A stretch of DNA of 64,000 bases from an uncultured bacterium (GTDB lineage Bacteria > Babelota > Babeliae > Babelales > JACPOV01), in contig CAVUUR010000006.1 of the NCBI GenBank assembly GCA_963744715.1, positions 32,001-96,000 on the forward strand, written 5' to 3'. The notes beneath the pieces were generated by a model. It had not been told where the DNA came from. It ran no database searches and saw only the letters and a program-made list of their open reading frames with translations. Made by a program: the position numbers and the translations under genes. Positions 22,893-60,042 of the stretch are shown piece after piece (positions within the stretch are counted from its first letter, which is position 1; each line of letters opens with the position of its first letter).

Positions 22893-23663
22893 CTATGATG
22901 CGCGTGGAAACCATGGGAAAAATGCATTGGTTTCTTTTTTGTATTGTTGATATGCAATACTTCTTTCAAATGTTTTTTCTGCTAAAGGAATACCGGATAC
23001 AAACAGCAACAAATAGGTTAATAACAATGGGCTTATAATGGTTGTAAACCCAAAAGGAACTGGTAATGCAAGTAAAAATATGCCCCACCACATACTACTT
23101 TCACCAAAATAATTCGGGTGGCGTGTAAATCGCCATAATCCAGTTTTCATAACCATTTCTTGATCACGCCGATGCCCCAAAAATTGGCGCAATTGATAAT
23201 CAGCTATTGTTTCAATCAAAAAACCGCTCATCCATAGTAAAAAACCAATACTATCAAACCACCTTAATGGCACCGGCACGCTCGTATTTATTAATAACAC
23301 TGGATACGAAATAACTATGATTAAAAAACCTTGCAGCATAAAAATAAATACAAAAGCTTTGAACCGTGCATACTGACCCCATTTAGCACGCCACGTACGA
23401 TAACGTGGATCTTCACCATGCTTATAATTCCGCATAAGAAGGTAATACGAAATACGAATTCCCCATAATAGTACCAATAGGGTAACCCCTATACTACGCC
23501 CGTAAAAATTGTTGGAAATTATTAATGAACTAAGTGCAAGAATGATAAACCCTATACCCCATCCAACGTCAGCTATACTGTTATCCCGTTTATATTGGGC
23601 AATAATAAATAAGACTGTCATGTAACAAAAAATAAGTAGTGGTGCTAACAAAAACCAACTCAT
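22893..23663 (-). CDS. DUF1295 / steroid 5-alpha-reductase-like membrane protein
   Basis: D..WG, ED.RY, E..AD.Q, GLWRFTRHPNYFGE. Confidence 0.9.
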   Translation of the reverse strand: MSWFLLAPLLIFCYMTVLFIIAQYKRDNSIADVGWGIGFIILALSSLIISNNFYGRSIGVTLLVLLWGIRISYYLLMRNYKHGEDPRYRTWRAKWGQYARFKAFVFIFMLQGFLIIVISYPVLLINTSVPVPLRWFDSIGFLLWMSGFLIETIADYQLRQFLGHRRDQEMVMKTGLWRFTRHPNYFGESSMWWGIFLLALPVPFGFTTIISPLLLTYLLLFVSGIPLAEKTFERSIAYQQYKKETNAFFPWFPRAS

Positions 23664-46621: not shown

Positions 46622-47449
46622 ATGATATCAAAAAAACATCTTATTTTTTATATAGTGTTACTGGCTATTCCAGTAACTGATATGTTTTCTCGTGGGGGCG
46701 GCGGAGGCGGCCATGGCGGTGGCGGTGGTCACGGCGGTGGGGGCGGAGGTTTCCACGGCGGCGGAGGCGGCGGCCGAGGTGGCTATAGTGGCGGTGGCGT
46801 TTCACGTGGCGGAGGCTACAGAAGTTCAGGTGTTGCACGAAGTGGTGGCGCAGGAACCCGTAGCGTTTCGCATACTAGTGCTTCCAGAGTTTCACGTACC
46901 GGTGCAACCGGAAGAACCACGGCAGCTCGTGTTAACAGATCAAACGCTGCAGTACGAAATATAGGGCGTGGAACTGGCGCTAGAGGAACTCACGCGGGTG
47001 CTTTAGGCAGAGGTGGTAGAGGAACTCACGCAGCAAACAGAAACCTTGCACACAATAAGCAAAATTTACATAACTTTAACAATCACTGGAACGGCCATCA
47101 TGGATGGGGCAATAACTGGTGGAACAACGGTTGGGGCTGGGGTGGTCTCGGTTTAGGTTTAGGTCTCGGTTTCGGCTGGTGGTGGGGAAGTCCATTCTGG
47201 CTGTATAGTCCTTGGTGGTATTGGGGATATAATGATTATAACCCATGGTGGACTGCTAGCATACCTGAAATACAGGTAGTAAGTTCTAGTGACTATGAAA
47301 GTTTACCGGAAGATCAACAAACTTCGTTTATAGATAACAATGTAAATGATCTTCAAAAGGCCATAGACGCACTTACTGATGGTTTAGAAAATCAAAAAAC
47401 GAAGGCTCTTCAAAAGCTTGATGAAAGAGTCAACGCACTGGGTATGTAA
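46622..47449 (+). CDS. Secreted Gly/Arg-rich, Trp-rich low-complexity protein
   Basis: Signal peptide, poly-G/RGG tract, NHW/GWGW block, coiled-coil tail. Confidence 0.8.
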   Translation: MISKKHLIFYIVLLAIPVTDMFSRGGGGGGHGGGGGHGGGGGGFHGGGGGGRGGYSGGGVSRGGGYRSSGVARSGGAGTRSVSHTSASRVSRTGATGRTTAARVNRSNAAVRNIGRGTGARGTHAGALGRGGRGTHAANRNLAHNKQNLHNFNNHWNGHHGWGNNWWNNGWGWGGLGLGLGLGFGWWWGSPFWLYSPWWYWGYNDYNPWWTASIPEIQVVSSSDYESLPEDQQTSFIDNNVNDLQKAIDALTDGLENQKTKALQKLDERVNALGM

Positions 47450-49103: not shown

Positions 49104-49487
49104 TTAAATTGACTCAATTCTAACAATAGTCATTTCTTGACGATGACCCTTTTTAACCCGTGATTTCTTGCGTCGTTTAAACTTAAAAATAATCACTTTA
49201 GGTCCACGCATTTGCTTTACGATAGATGCAGCAACTGATTTAGCCAAAAAAGGTTTCCCTATTTCCATGCTATCAGCACCTTCTTTACGGAATAATACCT
49301 CATTAAATTCAATTTTATCCCCTACTTCACCCTCTATTTTTTCAATAGCGATAGTTTTACCTTCTATAGCCTGGTATTGCTTGCCGCCTGTTTGAATAAT
49401 GGCATAACGATCAAAAGACATAATAGTGTCATTATGCTCTTCCTGGGTTTCTGGAGCGGGAGCTACTGCTGTTTTTTTGTTTTCCAT
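49104..49487 (-). CDS. rplU: 50S ribosomal protein L21 with ~25-aa N-terminal extension
   Basis: YAIIQTGGKQY, KVIIFKFKRRK, GHRQ. Confidence 0.97.
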   Translation of the reverse strand: MENKKTAVAPAPETQEEHNDTIMSFDRYAIIQTGGKQYQAIEGKTIAIEKIEGEVGDKIEFNEVLFRKEGADSMEIGKPFLAKSVAASIVKQMRGPKVIIFKFKRRKKSRVKKGHRQEMTIVRIESI

Positions 49488-49663: not shown

Positions 49664-51391
49664 ATGTTTAGCAAAAAAACCCTTTCCATCATTATTTCAT
49701 TGCTCTTCGCACGGTATGGACTAGCATTACCTCTTGAACAAAATAAGCAATATCCTTTTTTTGAAACGCTCTATAAAACTCTTTATGCTGAAAGCAAAAA
49801 TTCAAGCATTCACGCCTCAAGAATCAATTACATTTTAGAGGGAATTAGTGATAAAAAAAACCCCGAACGCTTGAGTACTTTTTTGCAAGCTATTCACACC
49901 TATCAAGCACAAACTTCCCCTAAAACCGCACTTGATGAAAAATTATATGAACAAACTGAACTTCTCGTTTTAGCGTTAATAGCTATTCATCAAGCAGAAT
50001 CATTGTGCATGGACCTTTTGATGGTTCTTAATAATCTTCTTATGTACCAACAGTACTGGGAAAAAATTAATATTAAACCTATCAGAAAAATAACCGCCCA
50101 AGGCCCTTTAGGGTGGACCAAAAAAGAAGAATCTCAGAATAATGAACAGCTACGCAAAACATTGGAACAAGAAATTGAGACAGCAACCCATTACCTGGGT
50201 GCCTTATATTATCATTTGCAACAATTTTCTTACGTGCAAACCGATCAAGATGTCGATCAAAATATTCAAAAAACAGCAATTATTATTAGCGATTGTTTAA
50301 AACATTCAACAATTAATCAAGATTCTTCAACTGAACTGATTTCTCATAAACAATTACATATTATGTTTCTTACTAATTGGAGCCGCATCGCTACGTATAA
50401 AAAAGATAGGCTCGTTGCGCTCGCAGAGGTAAAAAAACCATCTCACTTGCAACATTATTGGCTTGATTATACTCTTGGCGCATTAGCTATTGGCGCAGCA
50501 GGATTATATTGGTATCACCACCAAGAAGAATGCAATAAATTACAAGAAACGGTACAAGCAGCCATACCTAATTTTTATAGAAATTATCTTTTTGGCCCCT
50601 TCAAACGTATATATAATCTAATTTTTTCAAATAACAATGCATTATCAAAAGAAGATCTCGATCACGAACGGGCTGTTAATGAAGCAATAATTGCTCATGA
50701 CCAAGAGGGATTTGCGGCAATATACAAAGATTTATTACGCAAAGGACAACCTAATCTTTCAGAAGAAGAAATTGAGCAAAAATCTCAAAAAGCAGCATCG
50801 GAGGGAAATTACAGCTTATTTGAACCATCATATGCCAAGCAAGCTAATAATGCAGCATCAAACATATTAAGTCCATCTTGGTATTCTAAGTTGGTGGGTC
50901 AAGAGGGAACGCTTCTTAGTATTTTATTTCTTAAAGTACAACGAGCTTTTATTCTTTCAAATAAGACTAATATGAAACTCAATAACATATTTCATAGGGT
51001 CGACAACTTGGAATTAACCTTACAATTATTTGCAATAATACCCGCCGCTTTATGCATAAATGCTCTTTATAAAATTGGCCAAACTATGTACAACAAACCA
51101 AGCAAGGATATGTACAAGACTATTCATGCCATCTTGTTAAAAATGGAGCGCATTCTCAATAAACATAATACTACTGATCAATGTATGAATTTCCAAGCTC
51201 AGGGCCTTTTACTATATTGGGTTTATGCATTACAAAAATATCACACCTCTATTCCTGCTACTTACGCAGATGATTTTCAAGCAGATATTATTGAACTTTC
51301 ATCATCGCACTACGAAATACATCAAAAATTGGGAACGATACAAAGAATGTATCGCGCATATCCTTTCTTGGCTGCTCAAATAATGTGCTAA
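49664..51391 (+). CDS. Signal-peptide protein with Nca2/DGS1-like C-terminal region
   Basis: KPSHLQHYW + TM, F..NYL..P...IY..IF, ELT..L.A.IPA, GLLLY, DI.EL.......QKL..IQRM...Y.FL. Confidence 0.7.
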   Translation: MFSKKTLSIIISLLFARYGLALPLEQNKQYPFFETLYKTLYAESKNSSIHASRINYILEGISDKKNPERLSTFLQAIHTYQAQTSPKTALDEKLYEQTELLVLALIAIHQAESLCMDLLMVLNNLLMYQQYWEKINIKPIRKITAQGPLGWTKKEESQNNEQLRKTLEQEIETATHYLGALYYHLQQFSYVQTDQDVDQNIQKTAIIISDCLKHSTINQDSSTELISHKQLHIMFLTNWSRIATYKKDRLVALAEVKKPSHLQHYWLDYTLGALAIGAAGLYWYHHQEECNKLQETVQAAIPNFYRNYLFGPFKRIYNLIFSNNNALSKEDLDHERAVNEAIIAHDQEGFAAIYKDLLRKGQPNLSEEEIEQKSQKAASEGNYSLFEPSYAKQANNAASNILSPSWYSKLVGQEGTLLSILFLKVQRAFILSNKTNMKLNNIFHRVDNLELTLQLFAIIPAALCINALYKIGQTMYNKPSKDMYKTIHAILLKMERILNKHNTTDQCMNFQAQGLLLYWVYALQKYHTSIPATYADDFQADIIELSSSHYEIHQKLGTIQRMYRAYPFLAAQIMC

Positions 51392-51511: not shown

Positions 51512-52015
51512 GTGAAGAAAAAATTATTTACCCTAGGATGGCTGTGTGTTTTTTGTATAACACCGTACCTTGTTGCCGATCAAAATGTTTATACGCAAGA
51601 AGAAGCGGAAAGAATTCGTAACGAACAGAAAGAAAAAGCTGTTGCCGCTGAGCAAACATTATTAGCAAAAATTCATCATATGGAGTTAACGCAATCAGAT
51701 AGTAGCAAACTTCTTAAAGCCATCGATCGATATAAAGCACAAGCTACGCAATTTAATGGAAAGACAGCTTCTGATGAAGTACGTAAAATTAGTACTCAAT
51801 TATCGCTTTCTAGTGACGCACAGGGACTTTTAAAAGATATAGCATTAGCAGCGTCAACGATAGAATCAACTGGTTTTTTACACAAACCTAATGAATGGAA
51901 AAGAACTAACCAGATTTTCTTTGATAATGCTAAGGGATTACTGCAAACAATTATTTCACAACAAATTTCAAATAACGATACCCAATCAGAGTCTGGTAAC
52001 ACAAATTTAGATTAA
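51512..52015 (+). CDS. Secreted helical hypothetical protein
   Basis: GTG start with AAGGA RBS; signal peptide. Confidence 0.7.
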   Translation: MKKKLFTLGWLCVFCITPYLVADQNVYTQEEAERIRNEQKEKAVAAEQTLLAKIHHMELTQSDSSKLLKAIDRYKAQATQFNGKTASDEVRKISTQLSLSSDAQGLLKDIALAASTIESTGFLHKPNEWKRTNQIFFDNAKGLLQTIISQQISNNDTQSESGNTNLD

Positions 52016-54629
52016 TGTTCCTTTAGGGTATTCTGTTTAAAGGTCCATAGCACATCGAATGCTTTTTTGGGTGAAAGATTGTCATAATCAATAGTATCGA
52101 GTGCCGATAGCAATAGTTGTAATGATGCGGTTATCTGCTTCAAGATTTTTTATTTTTTCTTGTAATCGAGCATTTGTGGTAAATAATTCTTGAACGTCTG
52201 ACGATTCCGTTCCGATTGTTTTTGCATGTTCTTTTAAGTATAACAATACTTCTTGCGCTCGTTCTATAACCGGTAATGGTAAATGTGCTTGTTTGGCGAT
52301 TTCGATACCAAAGCTTCCGTCAGCAATGCCTGGCACAATTTTATGCAATAAGTACAATCGCCTTGATCAGTTTTAGAGCTAGCAGCAAAATAGGTTTTAT
52401 GCCGGAAAACGTTTCACAAAGGCAGTCAATTCATGATAATGCGTCGCAAAAAGACAGCGCGCTTTAATACTGCGTATAAATATATTCAACCACTGCCTGT
52501 GCGATTGCAAGCCCATCAAAGGTGCTCGTACCCCGTCCCACTTCATCCAAGAATAACCAAACTATTTTTGTTGCTTGAGTGCAAATAGATGCCGTTTCTT
52601 CCATTTCAACCAAAAAGGTACTTTTGCCTTCGGCCACATTATCGCCTGCGCCAATTCGGGTAAAAATACGATCAATAATCGACAATATGCTGCTGCTTGT
52701 GCTGGCACAAATGAACCCATATGTGCCATAATGCGTAATCAACGCAACTTGCCGCAAATAGGTAGATTTACCACCCATATTTGGGCCGGTAATAATCCAT
52801 AAAGACTGCTCATCGTCAAGTTGCGTATCATTGGGAATAAATTGTGCGCGAACACTGCGTTCAACAACTGGATGACGACCCTGATGATAGTAATATCATG
52901 ATCTTCATTAAAAGTTGGCCGCACATACTGTTGATCATAGGCAATACATGCAAGGCCGCAAGTAAAGCATCAAGATGGGCAAGCGCATGCGCCAATTTAC
53001 GCAATGGGCAATGATAGATCTCAACTTCATATTTAACACGTTCGATAAATCTCTTCTTCAAGTGCGTCATCTTCTGTTCGAGCATCATGAATTTCATGCT
53101 CAAGCTGCTTTAAGCTCTGAGTAGTAAACCGTTCCGTACCAACAATGTTTGATGACGAAGATAATCGATCAGGAATCAAATGCAGATTAGGTTTTGTAAC
53201 TTCAATATAATAGCCATGCACTTGATTATATCGAATTTTAAGCGAATAAATGCCCGTTATTTTTTGCTCTTGCTGCTCAAATTCAAAATATTGCATGTAC
53301 TATTTTCGATCAAATCTCGCATGCAATCAAGCTCTGATCAAAACCTTGCTTAATAATCCATTCGTTACTTGCATCATCATTCAAGGCGCGCGTAAAAGAT
53401 TACTCAATGATGAAAAATCGCCACATGCGTAACAATGCATGTGATAAAGGATTATTACATGCGCTGTGCAGATCAGTTGTTTAATAGTGCGGAATAGTGT
53501 AACGCGCTTTAAGTAGCAAAAAAATCATTAATGTTGCACGCCGCAATGCAATTCTACCAATAACACGTTCAATATCCCAAAGCAGGAATAGCAAAAGAAT
53601 TGTTGCGCTACATTGCAACTATCATGCACTAAAATGTTCGATAACACATCTTGCCGTTGAACGATTGCATCTTCTTTGACAAGGGACGCAAATCCATTTT
53701 TTAATCATACGCGAACCCATTGGTGTTGACTGAGCCATCCAAAACTGCAAACAAGCGTATTGTTGCGCCTGCCATCCTGATTATTTTTAACAATTCCAAA
53801 TTGCTTTGCGTTGCAGCATCAAGAATAAGAAAATCATCTGGCTCATAAAAATGAATATGTTGAATTGTTCTAATGCAGCATTCTTGCGTTTTTTTCATGT
53901 AGCATAAAAATTATAGACTGCTTGATCGCAGATGATTCTTACTTAAATGTGATTACGTGCTCAGGATTAAACTGATCCAGCCATGAGCATGCATGAGTTG
54001 ATCATCAGGATTTTACTATTAACGTTGTGAAATAACCAATGTTTAGAAATATGTGCTGAAACATGTTTACCCATTTGATATCTGGAATATAATTTCATCG
54101 GGAAAAAATCGTATCAATTCTGATTCTAACAGCTTTTTCAAGCATCGCAGGAACTATAGTTACAAAAATTTGTGCAGTTAATAAGCTCGCCAAATAACAA
54201 TCCCCATTGATTTGCTGCGGGAAAAAATGAAAATAGATATGATGCAGATTTTTCGTCAAGGAGTTTGGATCAGTCAATGTTCCAGGAGTTAATACTTGCG
54301 TGACACCGCGCTCCACCACCTTACCGGGTTTTGGCTCTTCTAAGCTGATCGCAAATCGCAACATTAAAACCACCTTGCACTAATTTAATCAAGATAATAA
54401 TCCAATGCATGTACAGGAACTCCACACAACGGAATTGGATCATCATTCATTTTTGCTTCGTGCTTGTTAATGTAATGCCTAAAAATGCTGCCGCTTTTTT
54501 TGCATCGTCAAAAAAAAGTTCGTAAAAATCACCGACTTGAAATAACACTAATGTATCGGGGTATTGCTCTTTTATTGCTAGATACTGTTTTATCAATGGT
54601 GTTATTGTTGCATTCTTGGCATCGTTCAT
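52012..54629 (-). CDS. mutS: DNA mismatch repair protein MutS, heavily frameshifted in this sequence (error or pseudogene)
   Basis: [75 protein letters not shown]. Confidence 0.92.
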
Positions 54630-54746: not shown

Positions 54747-56300
54747 ATGAAAAAAATAGTAGTATTAACGATAGCATCTTCTCTATTTGGTAACGAATTA
54801 ACTGATTTACAACAACAATTAAATAATTTGTCCAACGCACCGCAAGCTTTACAATTTCGTCATTTCTGCGACCACGAAATAGCCCAAGTCAGATATTCTC
54901 CCATAGATGATATTTCACAAGAAGAAAAAATATACCAAAAAAAACGATTGCTCATAGTAAAAAAATCAATTGAACAAATGCTATCACTATCATTATCTGA
55001 AGATCGCATTCCAAAAATAGCGTTATGTTTTAGTGGCGGTGGATTTCGATCAATGCTTATGAGCTTAGGTTTTCTTATGCAAGCAGAACGTAGTGGCTTG
55101 CTCAATGCAATATCATACATAGCAACACTTTCCGGATCAACCTGGGCGATAGCTCCGTGGATTGCGTCAGAAAATTCTGTTAATAATTTTTCTCGTATGC
55201 TCAATAATCGTATTGCAAAAAACGTCACCAGTATCTCTGAACATCATGCAATAAAAAAGATCGTTAAAAATTTGATCAATAAACTGCTCGCTCATCAATC
55301 TGTTTCATGTATTGATATTTTTGGTAACATATTGGCAAAAACTTTACTCGGGACAACGTGTACAAATCCTTTTGAAATAACGTTAACCGAATCCCATAAA
55401 AATGTTTACACTGGCATGGTTCCATTACCTATTTATACAACCATTAAAGCCAATACTCATCCTTATGAGTGGATGGAAATAACACCATTTGAAGTGGGTA
55501 GTTCATATTTAAAATCGTATATACCAACCTGGGCTTTTGGTAGAATGTTTTTCAAAGGAGTTTCCTGCAATAACGCGCCCGAACAAACGTTAGCATATTT
55601 TTTAGGTCTTTTTGGTTCTGCATTCCATGTAAATTTGAAAGATATTATTCGGTTGAGCGCAGAAACAATTTCTGCCGTTAAAACTGAAATAGAGCCTTTT
55701 TTTTGGAAGCCATTAAAAACATGCATACAATATATTGTGCATTCGTCAATTGGTGATATGCGTTTTTTTCCCTCCATATTTGCAAATTTTAGTTATCAAC
55801 ATCCTGAAAGTCCCCTCGCTGATGATAAAACTATTTCCTTAGTTGATGCTGGTATCGATTTTAATATCCCATTACCCCCACTCTTAAGAAAAACACGCAT
55901 GCTTGATATGATTATTATTTATGATAGTTCTGTATCAGTAACCGGTGCCCCTGAATTACGCAGAGCAGTAGAATACGCTCAGCGTAAAGGAATTGCTTTA
56001 CCCACTATTGATTATGAACATATTCATGAAAGAGTAGTTAGTATTTTTAAAGATGAACAAGATTATTCAAAACCTATTATTGTTTATTTTCCACGCATAA
56101 AAAATGATCATTATTCGACACTGTTTGATCCTGAACGATGTATTGAATCTGATTATTGCAACACCTTCAATTTTAATTATACCGCTGAACAAATATCGTT
56201 ATTACAAGGTCTTGTAGAATTTACTCTAAAAGAACAGCAGGGCTGTATCAATACTCTTATTAGAGAATTATTAACAAAAAAGTATGGGTATTCATGTTAA
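54747..56300 (+). CDS. cPLA2/lysophospholipase-type (PLA2_B) catalytic domain protein with signal peptide
   Basis: SGGGFRSM oxyanion loop, LSGSTW nucleophile, P.PIYT, W.E.TPFEVG, LVDAG, N.P.PPLL...R..D.II. Confidence 0.88.
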   Translation: MKKIVVLTIASSLFGNELTDLQQQLNNLSNAPQALQFRHFCDHEIAQVRYSPIDDISQEEKIYQKKRLLIVKKSIEQMLSLSLSEDRIPKIALCFSGGGFRSMLMSLGFLMQAERSGLLNAISYIATLSGSTWAIAPWIASENSVNNFSRMLNNRIAKNVTSISEHHAIKKIVKNLINKLLAHQSVSCIDIFGNILAKTLLGTTCTNPFEITLTESHKNVYTGMVPLPIYTTIKANTHPYEWMEITPFEVGSSYLKSYIPTWAFGRMFFKGVSCNNAPEQTLAYFLGLFGSAFHVNLKDIIRLSAETISAVKTEIEPFFWKPLKTCIQYIVHSSIGDMRFFPSIFANFSYQHPESPLADDKTISLVDAGIDFNIPLPPLLRKTRMLDMIIIYDSSVSVTGAPELRRAVEYAQRKGIALPTIDYEHIHERVVSIFKDEQDYSKPIIVYFPRIKNDHYSTLFDPERCIESDYCNTFNFNYTAEQISLLQGLVEFTLKEQQGCINTLIRELLTKKYGYSC

Positions 56301-57436: not shown

Positions 57437-60042
57437 TCATTTAAGATTGTTAGCAAGGTATTTTCCGGTATGACTGCCAGAATGTTTAACAATGGTTTCG
57501 GGTGTACCATAAACAATAATGGAACCTCCGCCATCACCGCCTTCTGGGCCAAAATCAATAATATAATCAGCAGTTTTAAGCACATCAATATTATGTTCAA
57601 TAACAATCATAGAATTGCCTTTTTCGATCAAGCGATTGAGAACCTTAAGCAATTTTTCAATATCATTTGTATGTAATCCTGTTGTCGGTTCATCAAGAAT
57701 ATATAATGTTTTGTTGCCCCGTTTTGCCAATTCATCAACCAATTTAATACGTTGCGCTTCGCCACCAGATAGCGTAGTTGATGGTTGACCAAGTTTTATA
57801 TAATCAAGCCCAACATCACAAATAAGCTCCAACCGTTTAGCAATATGTTTATGCGCCGCAAAAAAACTAACCGCTTCAAAAGCCGTCATATCAAGAATTT
57901 CGGCAATATTTTTACCTTTATAGGTAATTTCTAATGTTTCCTGATTATAGCGTTGCCCTTTGCAGCTTTTACACACCATAACAACATCAGGTAAAAAATG
58001 CATAGAAACTGTAATAGAACCATCTCCATTACATTCAAAACAACGTCCTTCTGGCAACATTAAAACTAAATCGTCCAACTTTATAGCCTCGCGCATTACT
58101 TTCTGGCAATGCAGCAAATAATTTTCTAATTTCATCAAAAATACCCAAATACGTTGCAGGATTTGAACGAGGCGTTCTTCCAATAGGAGATTGATCAATC
58201 ACCACCATATTCTCAAGCTGTTCTACCCCTGCAATATCTTGCATACTCTGTAATCGCCTTACCACGCGATACCTGATAAGTCGCGCTTGCAATGCCGGCA
58301 CCAATTCATCTACATAACTAAGAGTACTTTTACCTGAACCAGAAACACCAGAAACACCACACAAAACACCTAATGGAAATGTAACCGTTACATTTTTTAA
58401 ATTATTTTTTGAAGCATCAGATAATGTCATAAAATTCTGATGGCTTGCGCATTTTTTAGGAATTGCAATATAGCGCTTGCCTGCTAAATAAGCACCAGTT
58501 AACGAATTTTTATTTTACCAACTTGCTCAGGAGTTACCATAAGCAGTAATAGTGCCACCAAAAATACCGGCCGCAGGGCCCATATCAATAAGATAATCTG
58601 CTTGGCGCATCGTATCAATATCATGTTCAACAACAACAACCGTATTACCTTGATCACGTAATGCTTTTAAGCGTTTCAATCAACCGATCATTATCTCGTT
58701 GATGCAATCCAATACTCGGTTCATCAAGAATATACAAAACACCACTTAATGCATGATCCAATTTGCGTTGCAAACGAATACGTTGTCCTTCGCCACCAGA
58801 AAGTGTTCGTGCTGATACGATTTAATGATAAATATGAAACCCAACATTATTCAAAAATTGTAACCGATTAATAATTTCTTTTAACAATCTATCAGCAATT
58901 GCATGTTCAGTTTCAGTAAGTTCAAAATGTATAAAAAATTGTAACGCATCTTTAATAGAAAGATCACCCAATTCAATAAATATTTTTTCCACCAACGGTA
59001 ACCGCTAATGCATGTTTATTTAACCGTTTACCATAGCAACTGTGACAGGTTTTTTCCTGCGCATATGTATACCAAAAAAATCTGGATATTTGGCTTTCCA
59101 TGCTCTGATCATCATCCGGTTCCAAGGCCATTCATGAATAATACCTAATCCATGACATTCTTTACAGGCACCAATGGGAGAATTAAATGAAAAAAATCGC
59201 GGTTCAAGTTCAGGAAACGATGATAGCACATTCTAAACACATACGGTTGTGATGAATACAAATGTTCTTTATCTCCTACAATAACTTTACAAAAGCCACT
59301 GGCCAAGAGCAAATGCACTTTTCAACGGCCTCATGCACCCGTGCACGTTCATCGATGATCAATTTCAAGATAATCAATCAAAAGATCAATGGAATGTTTA
59401 TAGGTTTTGCTAATTTAAGTTGTTTGATTTCATCTTCAGATGCAAATCGATAGGCAACACCATCAATAATAAACCGATAATAACCCTTTTGTAAAAATCT
59501 AATAAATCATTAATAAATTCACCCTTTTTTTCTATCCAACGGCGCCGCAATAGTAATGGTACTTCTTGCAAAAGTGTTCACAACATATGCAGTAATATTA
59601 TCAGGAGATTCCGGTTTAATAGTCTATGGTACAATCTGGGCAATGCGGCACTACCAATGCGAGCAAATAAAACCCGTAAATAATCATAAATTTCAGTAAT
59701 CGTCCCTACGGTTGATCGGGGATTAGAACCAACGGTTTTTTGTTCAATAGCAATAGCTGGGCAAAAACCTTCAATACGATCAAAATCAGGCTTTTTGGCA
59801 ATACCAAAAAATTGGCGCGCATAGGAAGAAAGTGATTCCATATAACGCCGTTTACCCTCAGTAAATAGAATATCAAGGCCAAATGAGCTTTTACCCGATC
59901 CCGATGGCCCCGTAATAACCGTTAGCTTATTTTTAGGTATCGAAACGTAATATTTTTTAAATTATGCTCTCGAGCACCGGTAACCGTAATCCACTCTGTT
60001 GCCTTACGGATAGGCTCTTTTTTTATGCTTTTTGATATCCAT
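57437..60042 (-). CDS. uvrA: Excinuclease ABC subunit A, multiply frameshifted in this sequence
   Basis: [81 protein letters not shown]. Confidence 0.93.

Follow-up and report, generated by a model that had tools for sequence, protein, structure and literature searches.

The 64,000-nucleotide stretch of DNA analysed here (the window) comes from an uncultured bacterium of the phylum Babelota (Dependentiae/TM6) whose genome, 86% complete, amounts to 1.26 Mb. Within it lies an intact gene, free of internal stops, for a 575-residue protein (P0001), flanked by rplU and by a fragmented mutS (Table 1). The contig is bacterial, carrying 16S, 23S and 5S rRNA genes together with rplU, BamA, CysS, UvrB and a release factor, and the GC content of the gene (0.345; GC3 0.278) is typical of long open reading frames in the genome (means 0.367 ± 0.041 and 0.282 ± 0.054). 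Because both context and composition are those of the genome itself, contamination or recent transfer of the gene is unlikely. The same genome encodes three ATP/ADP translocases and two secretins, the latter an encoded route across the outer membrane (secretins were the route that the search covered).

Table 1. Features at the locus and along the encoded protein; positions are those of the window.
Feature	Position	Strand	Remarks
rplU (L21), divergent neighbour	49104..49487	-	synteny marker, no functional part
NCA2/DGS1-family gene P0001	49664..51391	+	575 aa, single copy in source genome
Predicted Sec signal peptide	49664..49726	+	about residues 1-21, no lipobox; from sequence and hydropathy
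Conserved N-terminal helical block	49964..50233	+	residues 101-190, outside Pfam model; helical in structural model
Weakly hydrophobic helix 1	50459..50515	+	residues 266-284
PF08637 NCA2 match	50510..51361	+	residues 283-566, Pfam profile
Variable helical region between hydrophobic helices	50516..51013	+	166 aa here; 96-321 aa across family
Weakly hydrophobic helix 2	51014..51070	+	residues 451-469; conserved central Pro in 48/57
C-terminal four-helix-bundle-like domain	51092..51388	+	residues 477-575
mutS, frameshifted into pieces	52036..54629	-	synteny marker, no functional part

Several other genes of the window deserve mention in their own right. Both mutS and uvrA (57443-59841, minus strand) are broken by several frameshifts and have no second copy in the genome, whereas their neighbours, including the genes that separate the two, are intact; the breaks reflect either DNA-repair genes in decay or a local assembly error. 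A signal-bearing gene of the lysophospholipase/cPLA2 type (54747-56300, plus strand; PF01735, E = 4.6e-32) lies 3.4 kb from the NCA2 gene, as one does at a similar distance in several genomes of f1, the family of the source genome, and of f18 (f-numbers denote bacterial families in our sample of 201 Babelota genomes). This type is found in 157 of the 201, often in multiple copies, and in none of 14 control genomes, and is a further candidate factor for scavenging host lipids. A small signal-bearing reading frame matching no Pfam family (51512-52015, plus strand) separates the NCA2 gene from mutS, likewise in some f1 relatives, and a further signal-bearing protein (46622-47449, plus strand), also unmatched in Pfam, has a long Gly/Arg-rich N-terminal half and a Trp/Gly-rich middle. 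Host-lipid and host-wall functions, respectively, are possible for a DUF1295/steroid-reductase-like membrane protein (22893-23663, minus strand) and a GH18 chitinase-family gene (5182-6324, plus strand). Elsewhere in the genome (contig C10, 6045-6278) we noted the core envelope lipid transporter MlaD, present in 188 of the 201 genomes and in most of them a single MlaD/MCE domain within an open frame of about 450-570 residues; E. coli MlaD is much shorter, and the long Babelota protein is a candidate lipid-import tunnel.

The original prediction held that the gene encodes a bacterial homologue of Nca2/DGS1, and the Pfam profile it had proposed as a check bears this out: PF08637 (NCA2) matches P0001 with E = 2.1e-15 and a score of 57.2 bits (gathering score 20.6), the alignment pairing residues 283-566 with profile positions 12-289 of 289 in the family of yeast Nca2 (YPR155C) and Arabidopsis DGS1. 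The motifs on which the prediction had drawn occur in the order claimed, from KKPSHLQHYW at residue 257 (nt 50432) to QKL..RMY..YPFL at the C-terminus. PF08637 is the sole Pfam family matching P0001 at E ≤ 1; it matches 37 of 57 aligned members of the bacterial family at E ≤ 0.01 (best 8e-22), and no other Pfam family matches more than one of them. Identity of the bacterial members to P0001 is 13-37%. In the ESM Atlas, the clusters closest to the whole protein are eukaryotic NCA2 (0.96, 0.93 and 0.93, with a low recognition value of 1417), and residues 22-285 alone are weakly closest to NCA2-bearing clusters (0.83, 0.78 and 0.75; all below 0.9 and a lead only).

An all-helical, partly hydrophobic protein of low identity, whose fold has no solved structure to confirm it, could in principle resemble the profile by chance, or its gene could be eukaryotic contamination. 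Either is exceedingly improbable: the match extends at E = 2e-15 across model positions 12-289 and reaches 8e-22 in the best family member, PF08637 is absent from the 14 controls, the language model agrees independently, and a bacterial contig and composition with conserved synteny already contradict the idea. At the level of sequence, P0001 is confirmed as a genuine member of the Nca2/DGS1 family.

A Sec-type signal, also predicted originally, is recognizable by hydropathy at the N-terminus, where two Lys precede a hydrophobic stretch with an A-x-A-like ending. By a permissive hydropathy test, 56 of the 57 family members have such a stretch; a stricter, crude signal test is passed by 20 of 30 members and by 216 of 720 long reading frames of the source genome. 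Signal peptides are reported on 44% of the CDS of Chromulinavorax destructans (PMC6561590). P0001 has no lipobox cysteine, and lipobox-like motifs occur in two of the 57 members, so the sequences do not mark the family as lipoproteins.

The AlphaFold model of P0001 is all-helical (pLDDT 81.5, pTM 0.66). DGS1 has two hydrophobic helices that enclose a soluble region and are followed by a conserved helical domain at the C-terminus, and the same anatomy recurs across the family alignment as two conserved, weakly hydrophobic segments and a C-terminal domain of about 100 residues. The N-terminal block carries the family motifs YW, P..W and LG (mean pairwise identity 0.18, 4% gaps), and a KP.H..RNW..Y motif leads directly into the first hydrophobic helix. 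Across the family, length varies most between the two helices, and conservation is highest in the C-terminal domain, with G514 invariant and K555 kept in 53 of 57 members. Fold searches with this domain returned generic four-helix bundles only, and a sequence search for a relative of solved structure found none. Residues ~140-190 and 467-525 show a faint, non-significant profile likeness (probability 1.6-4.5%), which might reflect an old internal duplication. Gly, Pro, aromatic residues and one Lys make up most of the conserved positions, with no invariant catalytic set evident, a pattern that would fit a scaffold better than an enzyme.

Both helices are weak by the measures we applied. Family medians are 1.0 and 1.5 on the Kyte-Doolittle scale and +2.2 and +2.6 in insertion score for helices 1 and 2, compared with 1.97-3.14 and -4.4 to +0.7 for six single-pass inner-membrane anchors of the source genome, picked by motif or position; the insertion scale is ad hoc, with six controls, and individual helices of a multi-pass translocase score as high as +2.9. 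Helix 1 is strong in two f6 members (-1.2 and +0.1). Mean Lys plus Arg counts are 2.23 before and 2.11 after helix 1, and 1.72 before and 2.75 after helix 2; a positive-inside bias is absent around both, the helix 2 values being opposite to those of a cytoplasmic loop.

Among the 201 phylum genomes, PF08637 alone finds the gene in 56 (48 over the cut-off) and in none of the 14 controls. The 57-sequence family profile matches 103 at E ≤ 0.01, from which we dropped 15 with a best match of E ≥ 6e-5 (the gap begins at 8.8e-21), leaving 88. These comprise all genomes of f1 (9/9, the source genome included), f4 (14/14), f5 (13/13), f17 (4/4) and the singletons f14, f18 and f20 (1/1 each), with 35/67 in f2, 2/4 in f6 and 8/9 in f12; by the same profile the gene is absent from f8 (28 genomes), f10 (23), f7 (8) and seven smaller families. 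The C. destructans protein (P0008) matches NCA2 at E = 5.7e-10, and the four described Babelota isolates are reported as strictly intracellular in protists (PMC12172432).

Beyond this sample, scanning 185,579 species genomes with a Babelota-derived motif, which distant bacterial relatives may escape, returned 21 stretches, 18 of them encoding homologues. Twelve of the 18 are labelled Babeliales, Dependentiae or Chromulinivoraceae; the remaining six carry depositor labels of other phyla and score 298-543 bits on the Babelota profile. Two of these were examined further (L045 and L051), the former showing the ybeY neighbourhood typical of f5. NCBI records of two family proteins name Dependentiae and Chromulinavorax, which together with the scan and the three ATP/ADP translocase genes assigns the source genome to the Babelota. 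In metagenomes, 19 of 25 motif matches encode homologues, mostly with the same Babelota-type neighbours. PF08637 was found in none of 201 genomes around an Aquimarina genome, none of 201 around a Flexilinea genome and one of 351 Chlamydiota-centred genomes, a sampling that excludes Proteobacteria; the one match is probably misbinned, its contig being just 1.7 kb long and its protein sharing 60% identity with one from f5.

The tree of the 57 proteins (FastTree) follows the bacterial families: its 11 groups require 10 label changes, as few as is possible, where shuffled labels require 32.8. It has long branches (end branches with a median of 1.21 changes per column), and its deep nodes are unsure. 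Neighbourhoods are likewise family-specific. The gene is divergent from rplU and/or faces mutS in f1, f4, f14, f17, f18 and f20; in most f2 genomes the order is mnmA, CDP-alcohol phosphatidyltransferase, a small secreted gene, NCA2 and ssb; in f5 it is convergent with ybeY; and in f6 and f12 it sits between phosphoglucomutase and serS. Tandem duplicates occur in one f2 genus and one further f2 genome. All five profile-negative f2 genomes that we inspected have either no gene or unrelated ones at the slot, and one f7 genome has mutS and rplU directly adjacent. We also observed that the small secreted f2 gene just upstream of NCA2 persists after NCA2 loss. Given a tree that follows families, family-specific neighbourhoods and empty syntenic slots, the sequence record indicates that the gene is old in the Babeliales, vertically inherited and, in parts of f2 at least, genuinely lost. 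Whether "host-derived or anciently shared", as originally predicted, the gene is by tree, distribution and composition old in the phylum and not a recent pickup.

As to how it came there, the distribution of the gene makes a single early transfer from a eukaryotic host into the Babeliales the more economical origin, and this is what we infer. The family might instead be older in bacteria and have passed to eukaryotes, as Nca2/DGS1, before their last common ancestor, the donor being a Babelota-like or related bacterium; in that case the bacterial protein would show the ancestral job, wherever it is located. The deep divergence and family-congruent history in the Babeliales agree with this, as does the great age in eukaryotes suggested by the occurrence of Nca2 in fungi, plants, a jakobid and trypanosomes. 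It is nonetheless quite improbable, as intracellular parasites commonly acquire host genes, searches of 350 other Chlamydiota-centred genomes, of 201 plus 201 genomes of two other phyla and of the 14 controls did not find the family, and the f7 mutS-rplU junction fits insertion into an older junction (or a deletion).

Bacterial proteins of this family have been named before. Supplementary file 2 of PMC4776705 contains two singleton rows with the label "ATP synthase regulation protein NCA2"; they are not treated there as orthologues of each other, and "nca2" does not occur in the main text. The NCBI name of one family protein (P0013) is an NCA2 label, and that of the C. destructans protein is "hypothetical protein". 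These existing names are automatic pipeline labels only and belong to the same bacterial family. Among the papers listed for Babelota, TM6 and endosymbionts in full-text searches, a body short of most subscription journals, none on these bacteria contains "nca2", and we found no discussion of bacterial NCA2.

Among eukaryotic relatives, yeast Nca2 is tabulated as an outer-membrane protein (PMC4889329), T. brucei NCA2 is listed with a presequence (PMC9981465) and Andalucia is reported to have Nca2 (PMC7050145). DGS1, according to the literature, is a MICOS/MTL subunit of the outer membrane that bridges TOM and MIC60 and whose loss alters lipids and cristae (PMC7865480, PMC10069894, PMC8154082). 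P0001 differs from its eukaryotic counterparts in being encoded by a bacterium and in bearing a bacterial signal-like N-terminus, not a mitochondrial targeting sequence. Proteins by which parasites recruit or target mitochondria include Toxoplasma MAF1b, Legionella LncP and Chlamydia Inc proteins; the likeness to them, by description and not by sequence or fold, is a proposed role at the parasite-mitochondrion contact. LncP is likewise bacterial and homologous to a family of mitochondrial proteins, and it uses a type IV system, whereas the bacterial NCA2 family bears a Sec-type signal. A mitochondrial carrier was not found in the source genome (86% complete). This genome does encode a signal-bearing AAA ATPase (L141:1138-2682, contig C7) with a weak hydrophobic helix and an ATAD3_N match at E = 3.8e-4, below the cut-off, possibly a second protein resembling those of mitochondrial contact sites; like bacterial NCA2, it would join a eukaryotic mitochondrial membrane family to a bacterial signal in the same phylum. 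ATAD3_N is matched in 17 of the 201 genomes at E ≤ 0.01 (two over the cut-off), and since these include the NCA2-negative families f3, f8 and f10 the two are not co-distributed.

The originally predicted role as an effector targeting host mitochondria or lipid traffic is plausible, and is consistent with the weak helices, the two secretins, fast evolution, patchy loss and the presence of a homologue in the isolate that is wrapped by a mitochondrion. Our best guess, tentative and short of an even chance, is that P0001 leaves the bacterium and inserts where it contacts host membranes, the outer membrane of mitochondria being the likeliest; with similar reserve, an exported factor at mitochondrial or vacuolar contacts would tether membranes and tap lipids. 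Sec would carry the protein across the inner membrane, both helices being presumably too weak to stop transfer, and a type II system or outer-membrane vesicles would release it. A host outer-membrane insertase would then place it, its two weakly hydrophobic helices inserting into the host membrane at the parasite-host contact, where it may mimic or compete with host Nca2/DGS1 as a membrane-contact scaffold in the MICOS/TOM/lipid-transfer complex. As an outcome, it would help the mitochondrion to wrap round the parasite and lipids to reach a bacterium unable to make fatty acids. C. destructans is described as replicating wrapped by an expanded host mitochondrion, shedding vesicles and lacking lipid synthesis (PMC6561590), and TM6 genomes as lacking fatty-acid synthesis and encoding a type II system, with the route to host lipids stated to be unknown (PMC4776705). 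That the helices have stayed weak throughout a long bacterial history suggests selection against inner-membrane retention, and the fast evolution and patchy loss of the gene (88/201) contrast with core MlaD (188/201).

Several observations count against export. Signal peptides are so common that the signal does not discriminate, about half of this intracellular phylum is without the gene, and the link to mitochondrial wrapping comes from one isolate. With identity to P0001 down to 13-37% within the bacterial family, the eukaryotic interaction surface may be gone from the bacterial protein, and passage through a type II system would require a protein with two membrane helices to be kept soluble, a step that the model does not explain. 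A signal and two hydrophobic helices also fit a protein of the bacterium's own envelope, and with signals so widespread in the phylum and the gene missing from half of it, explanations that retain the protein there stay live. It could cross the inner membrane and remain periplasmic, or lodge in the outer membrane as a helical hairpin whose variable loop faces the host, tethering the parasite to host membranes or passing host lipids inward and using the periplasm as mitochondria use the intermembrane space. Such an arrangement makes delivery into the host unnecessary, is fitted equally by the weak helices and signal, and agrees with the great length variation between the helices and with the position of the f2 gene just downstream of a CDP-alcohol phosphatidyltransferase gene. 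We consider it rather unlikely, however: that linkage is restricted to f2 and persists after NCA2 loss, alpha-helical insertion in bacterial outer membranes is rare and usually involves oligomers or a lipid anchor, lipobox-like motifs are found in only two of the 57 members, and MlaD is already near-universal.

Residence in the inner membrane, with both ends periplasmic and the variable loop cytoplasmic, would make the protein an envelope scaffold or lipid-handling subunit. Its anatomy is that of a default Sec/YidC substrate, some f6 members do have a strongly hydrophobic helix 1, and the gene is mostly single-copy and lies among housekeeping genes. Both helices are nevertheless weaker than all six control anchors (on the ad hoc scale), they lack a positive-inside bias, with Lys and Arg around helix 2 opposite to what a cytoplasmic loop would show, and the gene is dispensable in about half of the sampled genomes; we judge this location unlikely. 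Returning to export, its fullest form would have the Babelota capture a mitochondrial contact-site protein of an early host, add a Sec signal and return it to the host's mitochondrial outer membrane, hijacking the MICOS/lipid-transfer machinery, a doubtful but real possibility.

The gene described here is a genuine bacterial variant, shared family-wide, of proteins that have otherwise been described in mitochondria. We know of no biochemical mechanism for Nca2/DGS1, and the literature on them that we examined deals with eukaryotes only; a deep bacterial branch reveals which residues survive long divergence and offers new proteins for structure work. For the Babelota, the gene is a candidate in two questions, the mitochondrial expansion and wrapping caused by C. 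destructans and the lipid supply of fatty-acid auxotrophs. If capture from and return to the host were true, it would provide both a molecular cause of the mitochondrial wrapping seen with Chromulinavorax and the missing route to host lipids.
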